Origin: a virus
Virus record (IMG/VR): IMGVR_UViG_3300032323_000939
Coordinates: 1 to 64,000 of that record
Length of the DNA: 64,000 nucleotides
Direction: 5' to 3' (one strand)
Positions 13,984 through 63,138 of the stretch are shown piece by piece (within the stretch, counting starts at the first letter, position 1; every line of letters starts with the position of its first letter). The position numbers were made by a program, and so were the translations under genes. The notes under the pieces are model-generated. The model did not search any database, had not been told where the DNA came from, and worked only from the letters and a program-made list of their open reading frames with translations.

Positions 13984-14304
13984 TTAATCCTTATCCTTGT
14001 TAAATATAAAGTCTTTTAATGTCATCTTCTTTTTATATCTTTTTTGCCACTTTCTAATTAACGCATTACGTTCTCTGTGGCTTAAGCCTCCCCAGATTCC
14101 GTGTGGCTCATCCCTTTTAACGGCGTCCCATAAACATTCGGTGCGTACAGGACAATGGTTCTTTCCTGTTTCACCAAGACAAAATGACTTTGCCTTAGTT
14201 GCAATTGCTTTGTACTGCTCTTTGTCACGAGGAGGGTAGAAGATATCGGTATCTTGTCCTGAACATCTTGCTTTGTATCTCCAGGAGTACTCTGGTTCAT
14301 CCAT
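13984..14304 (-). CDS. whiB: WhiB-family Fe-S transcription factor
   Basis: Four Cys, AKSFC...CPVRTECL, GIWGGLS.RER. Confidence 0.95.
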   Translation of the reverse strand: MDEPEYSWRYKARCSGQDTDIFYPPRDKEQYKAIATKAKSFCLGETGKNHCPVRTECLWDAVKRDEPHGIWGGLSHRERNALIRKWQKRYKKKMTLKDFIFNKDKD

Positions 14305-40891: not shown

Positions 40892-41521
40892 TTATGCTGG
40901 GAATGCTGCTGCTGAAGTAGTTAAGTTTGTTGCCCAGTTAACATCAAAGCCCTCATGGACTAGTGTCATTTGTTCAACAAACAGAGCGTTGTCTCCAGCA
41001 TTTAGATCAGAGTATGCCACAGAAGTTGGCCAGCAGTTATACACGTTAAAGCGCATCGCTACGTGGTCTGTGTCTGCTGGAGTATTACTGTCTGGAGTAG
41101 AACCTGGAATTGGGTGAGACAAAACTGCAATCTCTAGTTCGCAACGGAAATTCTCACCACGAGCACGGGTTGAACCTCCACCTTGAACTGTTGCAAACAA
41201 GTTTCTCATCCACTCCCAGTTTTGATTTGTTCCAAGAATTACACCACGTTGCAGTGTGATAGGAGCAAATGTAGTTTGTCCTGGAATCTGGTGAACGGTT
41301 GTGTTGTATCCACCTTCACGGTAAGGAATAGAGTCTGTTGTAACAGCCATTCCTGATATAGATGTAAAGCCTAGAGTTGCAGTTCCCAAGTTCTTTGTTG
41401 CAGTACTTGTAGCCGCAGCACCAGTTGCTGTACTTGTTAATGGTTTAAACGTAACTAAAAATCTAAAGTTACGTAATGGATCGGTAATTAATGATGACCG
41501 ATTGTTAATGATTGTAGGCAT
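40892..41521 (-). CDS. Tail tube protein (T4 gp19-like)
   Basis: DPLRNFRF, YREGG, PGQTTFAPITLQRG, WP...SDLNA, LVHEG. Confidence 0.92.
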   Translation of the reverse strand: MPTIINNRSSLITDPLRNFRFLVTFKPLTSTATGAAATSTATKNLGTATLGFTSISGMAVTTDSIPYREGGYNTTVHQIPGQTTFAPITLQRGVILGTNQNWEWMRNLFATVQGGGSTRARGENFRCELEIAVLSHPIPGSTPDSNTPADTDHVAMRFNVYNCWPTSVAYSDLNAGDNALFVEQMTLVHEGFDVNWATNLTTSAAAFPA

Positions 41522-41541: not shown

Positions 41542-43044
41542 TTAGTTCAAAGTCTTTTGACTTAGATCGATGACAATGAACTCTGCTGGGTATTGAAGAG
41601 CAACACCAACCTCTATGTGTACTTCTCCATTTGCAATTTGTTGTGCGTTATTGTTTTCATTATCGCACTTTACAAAGTAAGCCTGTGAAGCAGTTGCTCC
41701 ACGAAGACCGCCTTGATTACGGTATTCATTTAAGAATGAACCAAGACTTGTACGAATCTGTGCCCATAGACGCTCATCGTTATTTTCAAAGATTGCGAAT
41801 TCAGTAAGATTCTGTAGTTGCTTACGGATGTAGATTAATGAACGACGCATGTTTACATACTTGTTAGCAGTTCCATCTTGCTTCAAAGTACGAGCACCCA
41901 TCACTGAAAGACCAGCACCAGGAATCTGGCGAATTGGGTTTACTGGTGATGTGCTTGCGTTCATTGTGTCTAACTCAGTAGATGTGAATGACTTCTCAAC
42001 TGCAACAACTCCTAGTAATGAGGTTGTAATACCAGCAGGGGCTTTGAATACGCCTCTGTTAGCATCAGTTGTTAAGTACAAGCCAGTTACTGCACCTGCT
42101 GGGCCAATCTTACGAAGAGCGCCAGTTCCACGGCCAATTGGATCAGCAATGAAAACAGGTGGGTAGTAGACAGCGGCATGACTTGAGTCAGTTAAACTTC
42201 CCGCAAATGAAACAGCGTTAGCCACTGTTAAATCTGGATCAGTGTCAATAACTACAAATCCTTCATTGCTTTCAGCCCAAGATGTAGCAGCGTCAAATAC
42301 TGAAACTGTTCCAGAGGCTAGTGCGTTTGCTGCTGGTATAAACAGAACTAGTGCACGGTTTAAAGAGGATAGTCTTTCAAATACAGAAGAAGCAGTTCCC
42401 TTGTAAGCAGTGTAGTCAGTAGATGCTGTTGCAGTTCCATTAGATCCACCAGTTAGTGGATAGGTTGCTGAAACAATTGTTCCTGAAGTAGACGCACTGA
42501 TAGAGATGTTTGGTGAAACTAAGTTAATAACAGTCTCAGCAAAATCACTTGATGTTGGATCGTTAAATACAACATTCTCATAACGCTCCAGAAGAACGTC
42601 ATCAGTAATATCATTAGCAACACCTGACTCTTTGTAAAGAGTGAGTGTGTATGTGCTTGCAACACTACCTGCAGACACAACAACACGAAGGGTGTTGCCA
42701 TCTGTTCCTGCATTCTTTGAGGTTACAGTTGCAACTACTGCGCTTCCAGAAGTTAATAGATCTACTGAAGCAGCATCTGCATCACTTGCTAGTAGGCGTT
42801 GAACATATAGTTCACGTCCGCCATTAGCAAAGAAAGAGCCAACTTGGAAGGTGGCTGGATAGGAAGCGTTGTAGCCTCCAAAATTCTTAGTAAATTCATA
42901 CCAAGATGTAACAAGCGTTACTGATTCTGGGCCTTGTGCAAAAGGTGCAACAACTGCGCCAGCAGCATTTGCAGTAACTCCTGTTGGGAGTACTGCGGGT
43001 AGAAGGCGTTCACTGATGTAAACACCTGGACGGCTGTAAGCCAT
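41542..43044 (-). CDS. Contractile tail sheath protein
   Basis: PGVYISE, FFANGG, GVFKAPAG, GARTL, FENND, PAEFI. Confidence 0.95.
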   Translation of the reverse strand: MAYSRPGVYISERLLPAVLPTGVTANAAGAVVAPFAQGPESVTLVTSWYEFTKNFGGYNASYPATFQVGSFFANGGRELYVQRLLASDADAASVDLLTSGSAVVATVTSKNAGTDGNTLRVVVSAGSVASTYTLTLYKESGVANDITDDVLLERYENVVFNDPTSSDFAETVINLVSPNISISASTSGTIVSATYPLTGGSNGTATASTDYTAYKGTASSVFERLSSLNRALVLFIPAANALASGTVSVFDAATSWAESNEGFVVIDTDPDLTVANAVSFAGSLTDSSHAAVYYPPVFIADPIGRGTGALRKIGPAGAVTGLYLTTDANRGVFKAPAGITTSLLGVVAVEKSFTSTELDTMNASTSPVNPIRQIPGAGLSVMGARTLKQDGTANKYVNMRRSLIYIRKQLQNLTEFAIFENNDERLWAQIRTSLGSFLNEYRNQGGLRGATASQAYFVKCDNENNNAQQIANGEVHIEVGVALQYPAEFIVIDLSQKTLN

Positions 43045-43735: not shown

Positions 43736-44052
43736 TATCGGTTACCTAAATGTTTGGATGTTCGGCCAATTAAAAACTTTTCAGTTTCTTGTTGACGATT
43801 TTTAAACCGTCTAATGGCAGCGGTAGGTTGGGTGCTTGGAGTTCCGTACTCAAGGTCCATAGCCTCAGCACGATGACTCTTGTGCACGTTAACTGAGAAG
43901 GAGCCCTTGTTATGAGTCACATTTAATCCTCTTACAATATGAGATGGCCATCCAGAAGCCTGTGCTTCAGAACGAAGGTGGGCAGACATCATCCGTGTTG
44001 TTTCAACACTGGCTTTGTTTAGAGACTCTTTAAAGTTGTTTAGGTAGTTCAC
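43735..44052 (-). CDS. Neck/tail completion protein
   Basis: LEYGT motif; synteny. Confidence 0.55.
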   Translation of the reverse strand: MNYLNNFKESLNKASVETTRMMSAHLRSEAQASGWPSHIVRGLNVTHNKGSFSVNVHKSHRAEAMDLEYGTPSTQPTAAIRRFKNRQQETEKFLIGRTSKHLGNR

Positions 44053-44243
44053 TTCTTTTTCTTCGCCTTCGACACAACCCTTGCTGCACCTAACGCATAG
44101 GCGGCAGTAGTACCAAGTATTAAGGCTGCGACGGCAGGACGCTTTTCTTTAGGGCGGAAACCAAACACACCCTTTATAAACTCTTCACGTTCATTCTGGT
44201 TGTTCATTTCAGCAACTTGCTGATACCAAGGCTTATAAGCCAT
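44049..44243 (-). CDS. Small hypothetical protein with hydrophobic C-terminal segment
   Basis: ORF track. Confidence 0.6.
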   Translation of the reverse strand: MAYKPWYQQVAEMNNQNEREEFIKGVFGFRPKEKRPAVAALILGTTAAYALGAARVVSKAKKKK

Positions 44244-44318: not shown

Positions 44319-44322
44319 AATG

Positions 44323-44346
44323 AAAAAGCCCCCTAGTTGGGGGCTT
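44323..44346 (-). terminator. Rho-independent terminator closing micropeptide operon
   Basis: AAGCCCCC-AACTA-GGGGGCTT followed by TTT. Confidence 0.85.
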
Positions 44347-44354
44347 AGTCATTA

Positions 44355-44603
44355 CTACTTTTTAAACTTCTTTTCTCTTTTGTCTTCAGCCTTCTCGCCC
44401 TTCTTACCTTCTTTGGCTTCGTGCTTCTTAGACATAGATTTAATCTTTTTTACGTTAGCAACATCCATCTTGCGGTCATCCTCTTGGGACTTAGGCTTGC
44501 GATGCTTCTTATCCATCTTTTCAAACTTAGCCTTTTCCTCTTTGTCAAGACCTTTAGTGGTCTTGGCATCCTGCTTCTTGTCGGAGGCCTTGGTGTACTT
44601 CAT
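44355..44603 (-). CDS. Lys/Asp/Glu-rich small protein
   Basis: ORF track; TAATG coupling. Confidence 0.75.
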   Translation of the reverse strand: MKYTKASDKKQDAKTTKGLDKEEKAKFEKMDKKHRKPKSQEDDRKMDVANVKKIKSMSKKHEAKEGKKGEKAEDKREKKFKK

Positions 44604-44740
44604 TACATGCCCTTCTTACGAGGAAGCATGTTTTTGGTTTTACCCTTTTTTAAGGCTTTAAAATCAGCGCCAGTAATTTTATTTGTTGGCTTTGCAGCAC
44701 TAGCAATCTTCATCTGCTTAGGTGTAAGGTCTTTCTTCAT
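44603..44740 (-). CDS. Lys-rich micropeptide (45 aa)
   Basis: MKKDLTPKQMKIA...KITGADFKALKK; TAATG at both ends. Confidence 0.75.
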   Translation of the reverse strand: MKKDLTPKQMKIASAAKPTNKITGADFKALKKGKTKNMLPRKKGM

Positions 44741-44805
44741 TATTTACCTTTCTGGCAAGTAGGGCACTTGCACTTGCAGTTCTTCATAGTGCATTTAAGG
44801 GCCAT
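44740..44805 (-). CDS. Cys/Lys-rich micropeptide (21 aa)
   Basis: MALKCTMKNCKCKCPTCQKGK; TAATG at both ends. Confidence 0.7.
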   Translation of the reverse strand: MALKCTMKNCKCKCPTCQKGK

Positions 44806-44921
44806 TATTTTTTGTCCTTTTTCTTATCTGTCTTCTTTTTAGCATACTTTTTGTTAGCAGCGGCTAGAGTCTTTTCTCCGTGTTTATCTTTTGGCTTCAT
44901 ACAGCCACAGGTAGCGCACAT
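44805..44921 (-). CDS. MCATCGC Lys-rich micropeptide (38 aa)
   Basis: MCATCGCMKPKDKHG...; TAATG at both ends. Confidence 0.75.
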   Translation of the reverse strand: MCATCGCMKPKDKHGEKTLAAANKKYAKKKTDKKKDKK

Positions 44922-45010
44922 TATTTACCCTTTGGCTTTGGTTTGGCTTTTGGACCCTTACCGAATCCTGGTTGACCTTTTTTCTTACCGCATCCACATG
45001 TTGCACACAT
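44921..45010 (-). CDS. MCATCGC Lys-rich micropeptide (29 aa)
   Basis: MCATCGCGKKKGQPGFGKGPKAKPKPKGK. Confidence 0.75.
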   Translation of the reverse strand: MCATCGCGKKKGQPGFGKGPKAKPKPKGK

Positions 45011-45019
45011 TGGCTTTTC

Positions 45020-45256
45020 CTATCTATGTCTTGCCGTTTTTTTGGCAATTGATTTGGGTTGTTTTACAAACTGCTTTCCCTTGCTATTGCCTTCTGCTTT
45101 AGCACGGTTGGTCGCAGCCTTTTCTGAAGGAGTAAGAGTATCCCACGCTTTGTCTGGTAGGTAACGCTTTTTACCTTTAGATTCTTTGCCATCTGAAGTG
45201 CGCCATTTTTCATTGCCCCACTTCTTTAGGGATTGTTGTGATTTAGCAAGAGCCAT
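45020..45256 (-). CDS. DUF5872-like C-terminal half
   Basis: QQSLKKW..EKW.T.DG...RYLP.KAW...GKQFV. Confidence 0.7.
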   Translation of the reverse strand: MALAKSQQSLKKWGNEKWRTSDGKESKGKKRYLPDKAWDTLTPSEKAATNRAKAEGNSKGKQFVKQPKSIAKKTARHR

Positions 45257-45453
45257 TACTTGTACCCTCCGCCTGCTTTCTTATATTCAGAAGCAAGAAG
45301 TTGAGCCTTACGAGCAGACCACTCTCCTGGATCTCCGCCTTTAGTTCCAGCCTTTATCTTCTTAAATAAACTCTTACGCATTCCAGGCTTGGTGTAATTA
45401 CCAGCCTCATTTACTTTTGACTTTGGTTTTGCTGCTGCTTTTTTTGCTGCCAC
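45256..45453 (-). CDS. DUF5872-like N-terminal half
   Basis: YTKP..R...KGG.PGEWSARKAQLL..EYKKAGGGY; GTG start with AAAGGAG SD. Confidence 0.7.
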   Translation of the reverse strand: MAAKKAAAKPKSKVNEAGNYTKPGMRKSLFKKIKAGTKGGDPGEWSARKAQLLASEYKKAGGGYK

Positions 45454-45547
45454 TTTTTGCTCCTTTCGATGCTGGTACACAGTTAGGCACTCTCTTGCCA
45501 TTCTTTATCTTAAAACCTTTTTGAACGTAACCTTCCCAACATGCCAT
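45407..45547 (-). CDS. CWxGY...VPNCVP basic micropeptide (46 aa)
   Basis: MACWEGYVQKGFKIKNGKRVPNCVP...; TAATG start. Confidence 0.7.
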   Translation of the reverse strand: MACWEGYVQKGFKIKNGKRVPNCVPASKGAKSGSKKSSSKTKVKSK

Positions 45548-45777
45548 TACTTTTCCTTACCTTTATGGGGGTTGTTCTTGTGCCAATCCTTAACTGCTTT
45601 AACGCCCTGCTTAACTGTTTTAGATCCACCCTTTTTAGTTAGGTTTATCTTATCCCACTTACCTTGATCACCAGCGTGATCCACAATTACATCGCCTCTT
45701 TTATTCTTTTTAACAGTGTGCTTAGTGCCACCAGCCTTTAAAGTTTTTGGCTTCTCATCTTTCTTTTTGTTAACCAT
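45547..45777 (-). CDS. Lys-rich small protein
   Basis: ORF track; overlap coupling. Confidence 0.75.
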   Translation of the reverse strand: MVNKKKDEKPKTLKAGGTKHTVKKNKRGDVIVDHAGDQGKWDKINLTKKGGSKTVKQGVKAVKDWHKNNPHKGKEK

Positions 45778-45959
45778 CAGGCTACCGACTTCTTATGTTT
45801 GTAACGCATTGGGGCCTTTGGTCTTCTAATTACGCCACCTTTTTTTCGCTTTGGTTTAGCGCCACCAGACTCATATCTACTTTCAGCAATGTTTGTTTCA
45901 ACATTCTTCTGAGGCTGTTTACCAGCCCTTGCACCAATTCCTGAACGACGTTTCTTCAT
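45777..45959 (-). CDS. Lys/Arg-rich small protein
   Basis: ORF track; overlap coupling. Confidence 0.75.
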   Translation of the reverse strand: MKKRRSGIGARAGKQPQKNVETNIAESRYESGGAKPKRKKGGVIRRPKAPMRYKHKKSVA

Positions 45960-46135
45960 TACTTACTCTTCTTTTTCTTAGACATTCCCGCTTCGCTCAT
46001 TGCAATAGCAATTGCTTGTTTCTTTGATTTAACTACTGGGCCTTTTTTAGAGCCGCTATGAAGTTTTCCTTCTTTGTACTCTTTCATAACCTTCTCTACC
46101 TTACCCTTTTTAACAGCACTTGCTTTCTTAGCCAT
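45959..46135 (-). CDS. DUF6496-like basic protein (58 aa; not in ORF track)
   Basis: KVEKVMKEYKEGKLHSG...VKSKKQAIAIAMSEA. Confidence 0.8.
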   Translation of the reverse strand: MAKKASAVKKGKVEKVMKEYKEGKLHSGSKKGPVVKSKKQAIAIAMSEAGMSKKKKSK

Positions 46136-46254
46136 TATTCCTCTTCCTCTTCGAACTCTTCATCAAAGGCATGATCATCATACTCTTTGTCATAGAATAG
46201 TATCTCATCTTCTTCAAAGAGATCTGGATCTAATTCAGACTCAAAATCTTCCAC
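46135..46254 (-). CDS. Highly acidic micropeptide (39 aa, 22 Asp/Glu)
   Basis: MEDFESELDPDLFEEDEILFYDKEYDDHAFDEEFEEEEE; TAATG-coupled to next gene. Confidence 0.65.
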   Translation of the reverse strand: MEDFESELDPDLFEEDEILFYDKEYDDHAFDEEFEEEEE

Positions 46255-46260
46255 AATTTA

Positions 46261-47463
46261 TTACACTGGAAACACTAGACTAGAAAGCCAAGCAGAGGTT
46301 GAGTCAGGGGTAACATTCCCATTAGTGTAAACAGTGATGTGCGTTAACTCAGAGGTGCCAAATTTTTGAGCAGGAATTACAACATCTACAGTTGGTCTAT
46401 ACTCAACTGGCAAATTAAACGCTGTAGAATTAGCAGTTCCACCAGATACATTTCCTCGTAAATAAACTACTCCATCTATTTTTTTATATGCTGGTGAGTT
46501 ACCTCCTGTATAACTATTGCTAAAAGAAGAAATTGAAATCCAACCAGAATCTGTAGTTGCACCAGAAGGACCCTGTGTGCCTTGAGTGCCCTGTGCACCA
46601 GTTCCACTAGCACCTTGTATACCGACTGTGCCTTGAATACCCTGTACTCCCTGAACGCCTTGTGCACCTTGTGCTACTGCGGAACCACTAAGTCCTTGAG
46701 CACCATTAAATCCTTGGACTCCTTGAGAGCCATCTCTACCCTGAACTCCTTGAGCGCCTAATGTTCCTTGAGTTCCTTGTAATCCTTGTACACCAATGTT
46801 TCCTCTTGTACCTTGAACTCCTTGTGCAGCAAATGCACCGTCTAATCCTTGAGTTCCTAGGGCACCTTGCACACCTTGAGTACCACGAGTTCCTTGTGTA
46901 CCTTGAATTCCATCATTACCAACGGTGCCCTGAATACCTTGTGCACCTTGTGCACCAACAGTTCCAGTTCTACCTTGAACACCCTGCGTCCCTTGGGAAC
47001 CAGTTGCACCTTGAGCGCCAGTTAATCCCTGTGCACCACGGGTGCCTTGCACACCTTGAGTTCCTGTAGCACCTTGTGTACCAGTATCGCCCTTAGTTCC
47101 TTGTACGCCTTGAGCGCCAGTAGATCCCTGCGTACCAAGTGCTCCTTGAGATCCAAGTGTGCCCTGTGCGCCAACAGTTCCTTGCGTGCCCTGTGAACCA
47201 GTCGCACCAGTAGATCCCTGTGTTCCTAACAATCCCTGTGTACCTTGTGATCCTGCAGTACCTGCAGTGCCTTGTGTACCTGCCCCAGTTGCACCACGAG
47301 AACCTTGTACACCAGTTCTACCTTGCACACCTTGCGGTCCTTGAATGCCTTGAAGAGTTGCGTCTGTTTCAATTCCTTGAACTCTTGTATTTAAATTATC
47401 TAATGCAGCATTTAAAGTAACATCCCAATTATTTGCACCTCTAACTGGCTTAACAAATGTCAT
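46261..47463 (-). CDS. Collagen-like fibre protein (Gly-X-Gln) with C-terminal globular tip
   Basis: Long GxQ repeats; DSGW...YKKIDGVVYLRG...LP.EYRP tip domain. Confidence 0.9.
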   Translation of the reverse strand: MTFVKPVRGANNWDVTLNAALDNLNTRVQGIETDATLQGIQGPQGVQGRTGVQGSRGATGAGTQGTAGTAGSQGTQGLLGTQGSTGATGSQGTQGTVGAQGTLGSQGALGTQGSTGAQGVQGTKGDTGTQGATGTQGVQGTRGAQGLTGAQGATGSQGTQGVQGRTGTVGAQGAQGIQGTVGNDGIQGTQGTRGTQGVQGALGTQGLDGAFAAQGVQGTRGNIGVQGLQGTQGTLGAQGVQGRDGSQGVQGFNGAQGLSGSAVAQGAQGVQGVQGIQGTVGIQGASGTGAQGTQGTQGPSGATTDSGWISISSFSNSYTGGNSPAYKKIDGVVYLRGNVSGGTANSTAFNLPVEYRPTVDVVIPAQKFGTSELTHITVYTNGNVTPDSTSAWLSSLVFPV

Positions 47464-62240: not shown

Positions 62241-63008
62241 TTAACCGAACAGTCCCTGACCACGATTGCTTGCTGCAGTGCCAAGTAACTTGGCTCTTTG
62301 TTTCGCATAGTCCGCCAATGACATTTCCCTGATTGAATCAGGCGTGTACGATTTTTGTTCCGAGTCATTATCGAGGGGTCCTGCGGCAGGATTAGTAATT
62401 CTAGTTCCTGCCATTTGTTGTCTTGCGCTTTGCATCGCTTGTTGAGCGGATGACAAAATTCGAGCAGATTTTTCTTTTAACATTGCGATGCTCTGCTCAA
62501 CCTCATCAGCATTGTTTCCATCAACTAGATCAAGAAGTTCAGGAACAATATTTTCCCGTTCTTGCTCAATACGTTGTTGACGATAATTCATAACTTCTTG
62601 GAACTTACGTTCTTGATCTAGGAGCGCAAAAGCACGTTCTCTTTCAAGACGTTCAGTATCTAATAGAGCCTGAAATTCTTGCTCCTTCTTTAGGAGGAGT
62701 TCTTTAGCAGAAAGTTCAGATTCTTCTTGTTCTTTCTGCAGTGCTGTTTTACGGGCTTCTTCTTCAGCAATACGTTTTTCACGTTCTGCTTCTTTAGTTG
62801 CTTGATCTTCACGAGCCTTCTTCAAAGATGCAAGTTCTTCTTTCATCTTTTCCATCTGTGGGTACAATTTTGCTTTCTCTTGTTCACGAGCCTTAGCAAT
62901 ATCGTCTGCGCTATACACAGAATTTACCTCACTTGTGTTTTCTACTGCTGGAATTGCCGCCAGAATTTCTGGAGACAATAGGTCAGCATTCTCTACGGTA
63001 TTTTCCAT
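62241..63008 (-). CDS. Scaffolding protein
   Basis: Charged coiled coil, MSLADYAKQR C-terminus, between portal and capsid. Confidence 0.85.
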   Translation of the reverse strand: MENTVENADLLSPEILAAIPAVENTSEVNSVYSADDIAKAREQEKAKLYPQMEKMKEELASLKKAREDQATKEAEREKRIAEEEARKTALQKEQEESELSAKELLLKKEQEFQALLDTERLERERAFALLDQERKFQEVMNYRQQRIEQERENIVPELLDLVDGNNADEVEQSIAMLKEKSARILSSAQQAMQSARQQMAGTRITNPAAGPLDNDSEQKSYTPDSIREMSLADYAKQRAKLLGTAASNRGQGLFG

Positions 63009-63138
63009 AGTAATCACCTATTTTTCTTGGGTCGTTGTCCGTATGCCTTTCGGCGTATCACTGGGTTTAGTACAAGACAATTTCATTACAAAATGTGTGA
63101 AATGTCTCGCTATATCTGATTTTTTTATCAGAATTCTT

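Follow-up and report, generated by a model that had tools for sequence, protein, structure and literature searches.

Twelve coupled micro-genes, one acidic and eleven lysine-rich, in the structural core of a predicted freshwater actinophage

Introduction

Why would a phage keep a dozen micro-genes, one for an acidic peptide and eleven for lysine-rich ones, among its structural genes? The question is raised by the virus record IMGVR_UViG_3300032323_000939 of IMG/VR, of which positions 1 to 64,000 were analysed (this whole stretch of 64,000 nt is called the window, and coordinates refer to it unless stated otherwise). The record is a complete viral genome of 95.5 kb with direct terminal repeats, and the window is part of it. 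The micro-genes, here called p01 to p12, make up about 2% of the genome and lie within its structural core. A sequence-only reading of the window had proposed that they encode a protamine- or histone-like kit, made in fixed ratio, that condenses DNA for packaging or takes over the host nucleoid, with the acidic peptide as chaperone. Here, we describe how the unit is built, how it varies among relatives, and where its modules recur. The twelve ORFs (open reading frames) are genuine, conserved genes, and several of their products are free-standing copies of modules that are chained in the polyproteins or virion proteins of other phages. We tentatively read the products as late-made polycations that accompany the phage DNA, with the capsid as their proposed destination.

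A conserved and translationally coupled unit

The unit consists of twelve minus-strand ORFs of 21–82 aa that run from position 46254 to 44355 (1.9 kb), and nine of the eleven junctions between them are 1-nt overlaps of the TAATG or TGATG type. The two exceptional junctions are p05/p06, where the genes overlap further, and p07/p08, where a 9-nt gap separates them. Both the coordinates and the junctions agree with the sequence-only reading, as does the composition of the products. The leader, p01, has 8 Asp and 14 Glu among its 39 residues and a net charge of −21, and the remaining eleven products are Lys-rich with net charges of +6 to +17 each, which sum to +139. Since Lys far outnumbers Arg in these extremely basic products, they are H1-like; the protamine half of the proposed protamine- or histone-like character falls away, the products being Lys-rich instead of Arg-rich.

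Downstream, the unit is closed by a strong intrinsic terminator within the virion gene region, which had been recognised before (44346 to 44326; fold of −23.8 kcal/mol, z −3.99), and the gap of about 100 nt that precedes the next gene, d1, is kept in relatives. Upstream, p01 is in frame with a collagen-like fibre gene, from which it follows after TAA TAA ATT (window 46255–46263), and it has a GTG start without a Shine–Dalgarno sequence; relatives start p01 with ATG instead. A promoter scan returned three sites against 4.8 expected, none of them promoter-like between the fibre gene and p01, and an internal promoter is not indicated.

Standard gene callers overlook many of the twelve genes. Related IMG/VR loci were collected as the best 80 of 260 reached through the neighbouring 219-aa gene and 80 of the at least 456 viral contigs in which p04 occurs. 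In a synteny survey of these contigs by tblastn, all twelve families are found upstream of the 219-aa anchor gene, in the same order. Compared with their homologues, all twelve genes are near saturation at synonymous sites (pS 0.29–0.83) with few nonsynonymous differences (pN 0.04–0.31), resulting in a pN/pS of 0.15–0.46 (0.17 for p09, 0.25 for p12, 0.32 for p03, and 0.37 for p01); the flanking genes d1 and d2 lie in the same range. The homologues were gathered by protein similarity, which introduces some bias into these ratios, though the contrast is large. Near-saturated synonymous sites with low pN/pS, together with collinear conservation, mark the twelve ORFs as genuine genes under purifying selection. 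Across the relatives, 1-nt overlaps far outnumber every other kind of junction (286 of about 560), and this count, the structural context and the terminator uphold the view of a conserved, translationally coupled late unit with an acidic head gene.

Within the 95.5-kb genome, Lys-rich small ORFs cluster only at 44355–46254, apart from an 87-aa gene beside the portal gene. Two plus-strand ORFs of 113 aa that cross the unit (44320–44661 and 44421–44762) were rejected as genes, as they are Phe/Leu-rich antisense shadows of Lys codons. Among GenBank phages, megablast finds no match to the region and tblastn finds none for p02, p03, p04, p09, p11, or p12, a result to which the low-complexity filter may contribute.

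Variable membership in a fixed order

Clustering all ORFs of the region in the related loci yields a pan-cassette of 39 distinct cassettes in 25 architectures, with 5–13 genes each and always collinear. The core families are p01 (39/39), p02 and p04 (38 each), and Lys-rich tails of the p11/p12 type (38). A Cys-headed peptide is present in 34 of the 39 cassettes, plus six with a 9-Cys type, and DUF6321 is present in 33 (Pfam, 1.6e-26); the cassette of the window is unusual in being without DUF6321. The variable families are p05 (29 of 39), p10 (18), p03 (15), p06 with p07 (12), N66 (10), and N53 (8). Here, p05 and N53 alternate in one slot, and p06 and p07 always occur together (12/12 cassettes). 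A kit made in fixed ratio, as had been proposed, does not fit such changing membership.

The leader p01 opens every cassette, and in 38 of the 39 its next neighbour is p02; the mean net charges of p01 and p02 are −19 and +14, respectively. The idea that the acidic peptide serves as a chaperone for the whole set fails on charge, because −21 would face +139 at equal copy number, and p02 is its only fixed partner. Going by this invariant adjacency alone, p01 would most likely pair with p02 only. The N-terminal region of p01 has the conserved motif [DE]FExE[LI]DPxLFE, in which F4, E5, L12, and F13 are invariant (alignment A4). A p01 profile matches only nine clusters among 1.8 billion representatives, and an ESM Atlas search with p01 gives scores of at most 0.81, all to clusters without names; by these searches, p01 is lineage-restricted. 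Two long p01 matches from metagenomic relatives (P0242 and P0243) were rejected as informative fusions. They are HNH endonuclease ORFs of about 120–160 aa that continue straight into p01, as if homing endonucleases had inserted between the fibre gene and p01 in some relatives.

Parts of the cassette are also seen elsewhere. Twelve p04-bearing contigs (L096–L170) have p04 beside DUF6321 only, with the rest of the cassette not seen, and the p04–DUF6321 pair may also belong to another phage lineage. Shorter coupled Lys-rich chains (p06, p07, DUF6321, and others) are present in HTVC033P and MEP402, where they adjoin an endolysin or TerL gene.

Modules shared with large phage proteins

The kinship of p02 with DUF6496, noticed in the sequence-only reading, is borne out by Pfam (PF20106; 37.6 bits against a gathering cut-off of 24, E 2.9e-9). 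This module is found in 800 longer proteins, including polyproteins of 565–967 aa, and p07 modules are found in polyproteins of 700–1500 aa. The p02- and p07-bearing polyproteins (565–1500 aa) have repeated x-G-G linkers, and one of them (P0079) also has HExxH motifs. The head of p05 is the previously described CW.GY...VPNCVP module of 23 residues, which matches the interior of seven larger PHROGs. It is contained in larger proteins of T4-like cyanophages (S-PM2 p145) and of haloarchaeal tailed viruses, among them gp13 of HSTV-1, a head maturation protease-scaffold, and in a 347-aa portal-adjacent protein of the Actinomycetia phage DSL-LC01.

DUF6321 of the sister cassettes corresponds to the C-terminus of S-CREM2 gp137 (42% identity, E 1.5e-14), whose gene has the small terminase gene on one side and the large one on the other and lies upstream of that for the sheath. 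The virion proteome of S-CREM2 lists gp137 with four peptides and 4.1% coverage (PMC10665884, Table 3). DUF6321 also ends ACG-2014f gp129 (L091:209-2728), an 839-aa Lys-rich modular protein that is encoded two genes upstream of TerL and also has a CW-like module. Between its modules, gp129 carries three copies of a near-identical FSNWRD junction motif (E[HQG]FS[NS]WRD[DN]), which may mark processing sites.

Other fusions link the basic modules to DNA. P0031 joins an Endonuclease_7 (HNH) domain to p07, and bacterial and viral proteins of the fused DUF5872 type often have H1-like AKK-repeat tails, with one of them (P0107) also matching Pfam HC2. Tails of the AKK/PKK type are likewise present on p06, p08, and their homologues. 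Based on the HNH and AKK fusions, the polyprotein modules, the p05 module in the HSTV-1 scaffold, and DUF6321 in the virion protein gp137, association with DNA or with the virion is the best available reading of the basic modules. To this extent the proposed DNA condensation kit for packaging survives as a possibility.

The large proteins of aquatic phages (S-CREM2 gp137, ACG-2014f gp129, S-PM2 p145, and P0007, P0024, P0079, and P0137) contain the same DUF6321, CW..VPNCVP, p07, and DUF6496 modules, and are encoded near neck, terminase, or sheath genes. They chain these modules in one polypeptide, whereas the unit of the window consists of separate genes joined by TAATG and is without DUF6321. 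Micro-genes of the cassette can also merge with each other: one relative has a 94-aa ORF (L075:4204-4485) that joins the N-terminal part of p02 (DUF6496) to p04, a natural fusion of two neighbouring micro-genes.

For p04, alignment A1 has the invariant residues H20, H34, D42, and H66. Its AF2 model (pLDDT 80.7) is predicted to have four strands and two helices, and fold searches with this model are uninformative (best Foldseek match a PUR-alpha repeat at E 0.32, best VIA Z 4.4). Sequence searches of the PDB return nothing for p02, p07, DUF6321, or the A2 profile, and p03 matches no family in Pfam, PHROG, or NCBIfam.

A split DUF5872-type protein

Neither p06 nor p07 matches Pfam PF19197 (DUF5872) singly at E ≤ 1. 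Among PHROGs, p06 matches phrog_17747 (1.6e-34 over residues 21–81) and p07 matches phrog_14910 (5e-37), and homologues are found in pelagiphages, HMO-2011, CRP roseophages, Methylophilales phages (MEP401/402), and S-CRES cyanophages. S-CRES1 gp97 has both halves in one protein and aligns end to end with DUF5872 at 14.7 bits, under the cut-off of 27.5, and many of the longer p07 relatives are fused forms of 140–180 aa that carry PF19197. In alignment A2, the N half is spanned by p06 (with the GTG at 45453 as its start), which ends at GGGYK, and the C half by p07; identity to the fused protein P0111 is 74% for p06 and 54% for p07. The true start of p06 is probably this GTG, which lies behind AAGGAG. 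Because p06 and p07 align to the two halves of fused homologues, the claim of a split DUF5872-like pair was right, and the alignment makes them two halves of a DUF5872-type protein.

The DUF5872 proteins of bacteria and giant viruses have the same two halves, which align end to end with p06 and p07. They are single proteins, whereas the phage unit has two coupled genes, with the split at the linker between the halves. At least 588 bacterial species, spread over many phyla, carry the fused gene on their chromosomes, and in 61 bacterial loci of this gene no neighbour is conserved across phyla.

Cysteine heads with a HypB motif

The pair of M-C-A-T-C-G-C peptides reported earlier (p08 and p09) is present, and belongs to a larger group: 51 distinct peptides in related loci begin with M-C-x-x-C-G-C. 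In head alignment A3, all 34 peptides share M1, C2, C5, and C7, and at least 90% of them keep G6. The CxxCGC head is found on at least five kinds of tails (p08-, p09-, p11-, and p12-type, and metallothionein-like), and therefore behaves as a mobile module. The bodies of p11 and p12 carry it in relatives. So does p10, which in relatives is joined to a CxxCGC head, resulting in 33–35-aa peptides with nine Cys. The Cys content of p10, with its C-x-C and C-x-x-C clusters, is metallothionein-like as regards composition only, and no family model matches it. In the window, the heads of p08 and p09 differ in their codons at five of the six positions, which shows that selection acts on the peptide.

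The N-terminal prefix of HypB (NCBIfam HypB_prefix_1) is the only family that is matched repeatedly, by 17 of the 34 head peptides (best E 2.3e-4; p09 at E 0.002), with all 17 matches below the 30-bit cut-off, as expected of a 7-residue motif. In HypB, CxxCGC has picomolar affinity for Ni(II), with Cys2, Cys5, Cys7, and the N-terminal amine as ligands, and Zn(II) is bound by peptide models as well (PMC12284835). The motif is located at the extreme N-terminus in both cases, with identical spacing and Gly, and by analogy the phage heads probably work like the HypB metal site. HypB, however, has a GTPase domain and a hydrogenase context. The phage heads have neither and sit on Lys-rich tails of 20–70 aa, swapped among tail types. 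As the Cys-headed peptides (26–79 aa) have Lys-rich tails only and no GTPase (G) domain, they are not HypB members and have the motif alone in common.

Genome context and host

The genome has a GC content of 40.9% and carries nearly all of its genes on the minus strand. Two WhiB-family genes (PF02467, 66.6 and 65.4 bits) and the presence of the locus in lake and freshwater metagenomes indicate a freshwater phage of an actinobacterial host; the phage is classed as a myophage. In order of transcription, TerL is followed by a 131-aa gene, an 87-aa Lys-rich gene, the portal gene, a 258-aa gene without a family match, and the major capsid gene. Then come three collagen-like fibre genes, the micro-gene unit, the terminator, d1 and d2, the 219-aa gene, and the sheath, tube, and baseplate genes. 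Coordinates are given in Table 1.

The 87-aa Lys-rich gene, a paralogous one, has a 1-nt overlap with the start of the portal gene and is thus itself coupled. It has no Pfam or PHROG match, and the N-terminal pattern of its product (..SAWVSKKYQQAGGQY..) resembles the p06 half of DUF5872. Downstream of the terminator, d1 has no family match and may be a membrane or holin-like protein. A prohead protease of the S78, S77, or ClpP type is not recognised in the complete genome; the S77 control itself matched nowhere, and this absence is weak negative evidence.

Table 1. Coordinates of the micro-genes and of neighbouring or related features (window positions unless marked otherwise)
Feature	Position	Strand	Description
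Collagen-like fibre gene	46261–47463	−	directly upstream of p01; ends TAA TAA, 6 nt before p01 start
p01	46135–46254	−	39-aa acidic leader, 22/39 Asp/Glu; GTG start
p02	45959–46135	−	58 aa, DUF6496 (PF20106), net charge +15
p03	45777–45959	−	60-aa K/R-rich protein, variable slot
p04	45547–45777	−	76-aa core protein
p05	45407–45547	−	46 aa; CW.GY...VPNCVP module and Ser/Lys tail
p06	45256–45453 (longest ORF from 45501)	−	about 65 aa, N half of DUF5872-type protein; overlaps p05 tail
p07	45020–45256	−	78 aa, C half of DUF5872-type protein
p08	44921–45010	−	29 aa; N-terminal M-C-A-T-C-G-C head and Gly/Pro/Lys tail
p09	44805–44921	−	38 aa; M-C-A-T-C-G-C head and Lys-rich tail
p10	44740–44805	−	21 aa, 5 Cys (C-x5-C-x-C-x-C-x2-C), metallothionein-like
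p11	44603–44740	−	45-aa Lys-rich protein; conserved in 62 loci
p12	44355–44603	−	82-aa mixed-charge Lys-rich protein (29 K, 17 D/E), last gene; conserved in 62 loci
Intrinsic terminator	44326–44346	−	closes unit; 8-bp stem, 6 GC, U run
d1	44049–44243	−	first gene past terminator; 64 aa, conserved, one hydrophobic segment, KKKK end
Sheath gene	41542–43044	−	downstream flank of unit
Tube gene	40892–41521	−	downstream flank of unit
258-aa gene	62241–63017		between portal and capsid genes
87-aa Lys-rich gene	genome 64875–65138 (just outside window; L095:4876-5139)	−	between TerL and portal
WhiB-family gene	14059–14283	−	PF02467
WhiB-family gene	genome 90087–90281	+	PF02467

What the products may do

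The explanation that we put forward, tentatively, is that the products are late-made polycations that accompany the phage DNA, probably as cargo of the capsid. The 1.9-kb unit closes a late head/fibre operon at its 3′ end, and ribosomes leaving the fibre gene would re-initiate along the chain, so that the set would be made late and together. Separate coupled genes would be an alternative to a polyprotein that is cut by a protease. The most likely role of the basic products would be that of polycationic counter-ions, bound to the phage DNA and carried in the capsid, and the CxxCGC heads would bind Ni(II) or Zn(II) in the manner of HypB, providing a folded or bridging head for the tails.

Known systems offer two parallels. 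The internal proteins IPI–III of T4 and its acidic internal peptides II and VII are small, made late, located with the DNA in the head, and leave with the DNA; the internal proteins have a capsid-targeting sequence and are processed by the gp21 protease. The likeness consists of small basic proteins and acidic peptides that are made late, with the head location only proposed for the phage unit. A targeting sequence and a gp21-like protease are found for T4 but not for the unit, and the sequences are not similar. Linker-histone or HC2-like Lys/Ala-rich tails, for their part, have acidic partners such as prothymosin-alpha. Here, the AKK/PKK tails and an acidic disordered peptide beside a basic partner are alike, as an analogy only and without homology to the phage products.

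Several observations weigh against capsid cargo. The locus is present in no RNA run among those indexed. The link to the virion is indirect, as it runs via DUF6321, which has no counterpart in the cassette of the window, and S-CREM2 gp137 was detected by only four peptides (4.1% coverage) of unassigned position. No capsid-targeting sequence, shared N-terminal leader, or head protease is found in the genome, which matters because small proteins must have some way of entering the procapsid. The variable membership of the cassettes argues against a strict stoichiometric machine. Furthermore, the basic role of the DUF5872-type protein is cellular and not virion-specific, since the fused gene is common on the chromosomes of more than 580 bacterial species. 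Structure models do not help either: the model of fused DUF5872 (AF2; pLDDT 86.8, pTM 0.56) gives uninformative matches (Foldseek E > 0.8, VIA Z ≤ 4.1) and, like the equally relative-less model of p04, provides no evidence of a new fold.

Some of these points would suit nucleic-acid binders that act late inside the cell and stay unpackaged, coating or condensing phage DNA or the host nucleoid, or protecting DNA from damage. Such binders would have the same composition, the HNH–p07 fusion, and the H1-like tails, would accord with the chromosomal DUF5872-type genes of bacteria, and would need neither the capsid-targeting sequence nor the head protease that are not seen in the genome. We consider them unlikely, as the unit is located at the end of the structural operon and not in an early or replication module, and its modules are met again in proteins of the capsid interior or in proteins detected in virions. 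The takeover of the host nucleoid suggested by the sequence-only reading is a poor fit with the same position. It is likewise doubtful that the unit is a hypervariable accessory island, in which unrelated small genes (for metal handling, anti-defence, or stress-protein-like functions) have gathered at a permissive pre-tail site without a common function. The 25 architectures of 5–13 genes, slots that swap families (p05 and N53), and HNH endonuclease insertions beside p01 in relatives would be expected of such an island, and the region between terminase and sheath is hypervariable in cyanomyoviruses (PMC3037559). The same paper treats T4-GC119 as hypothetical and as part of a mobile cassette, and a structural role of T4-GC119 found no support. 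The order, however, is strictly collinear with five near-universal families, all products have the same extreme composition, and the same families form coupled cassettes in unrelated podoviruses and modules of single polyproteins.

Cationic peptides could also help lysis by disrupting the envelope late in infection, and homologous small genes do adjoin endolysin genes in HTVC033P, HMO-2011, and CRP-9, with the hydrophobic segment of d1 next to the unit of the window. This is very improbable: eleven different peptides far exceed the needs of lysis, none is predicted to be amphipathic or membrane-active in any test run, and the module fusions suggest proteins of DNA or of the virion, with fused p06/p07 being chromosomal in bacteria. 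Hardly any weight falls to mimics of ribosomal proteins that remodel host ribosomes. The products are small and basic and come from a coupled operon, and p04 as a single sequence matched uL24 in the PDB (E 0.004), but no ribosomal family of Pfam (including KOW), NCBIfam, or PHROG is matched. A relationship of p04 to uL24/KOW proteins was rejected, because the match is lost with a 19-sequence profile and the fold model is unlike uL24.

Polycations bound to the packaged DNA thus remain the reading that we carry forward. In its most elaborate form, which we regard as a long shot worth stating, they would make up a mini-chromatin of an abundant freshwater actinophage lineage with genomes of about 95 kb, in which evolvable micro-proteins serve as counter-ions, heads bind Ni or Zn, and p01 holds the DUF6496 protein inert until DNA displaces it. 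Translational coupling, and not the cleavage of a polyprotein, would then supply the parts of this mini-chromatin.

Biological meaning

The searchable literature has hardly any mention of DUF6496, DUF6321, and DUF5872: DUF5872 is a gene-table entry only, and DUF6321 does not appear among the papers listed. The p06/p07 split, the CxxCGC heads on varied tails, and the presence of the modules in polyproteins are, as far as sequence comparison goes, the new points of this analysis. They concern a twelve-gene unit in the structural core of the genome, with families that are conserved across hundreds of lake viral contigs. The polyprotein, the two-gene split, and the micro-gene chain provide a clear case of alternative delivery of the same modules, and it is unexpected to see a nickel-chaperone motif reused as a HypB-type head on H1-like tails. 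If the products are indeed DNA-bound cargo, they would reveal how packaged DNA is neutralised in phages of waters with low ionic strength, and the material that these phages inject would gain a protein layer. A function would also be given to the small basic proteins of pelagiphages, cyanophages, giant viruses, and many soil bacteria.

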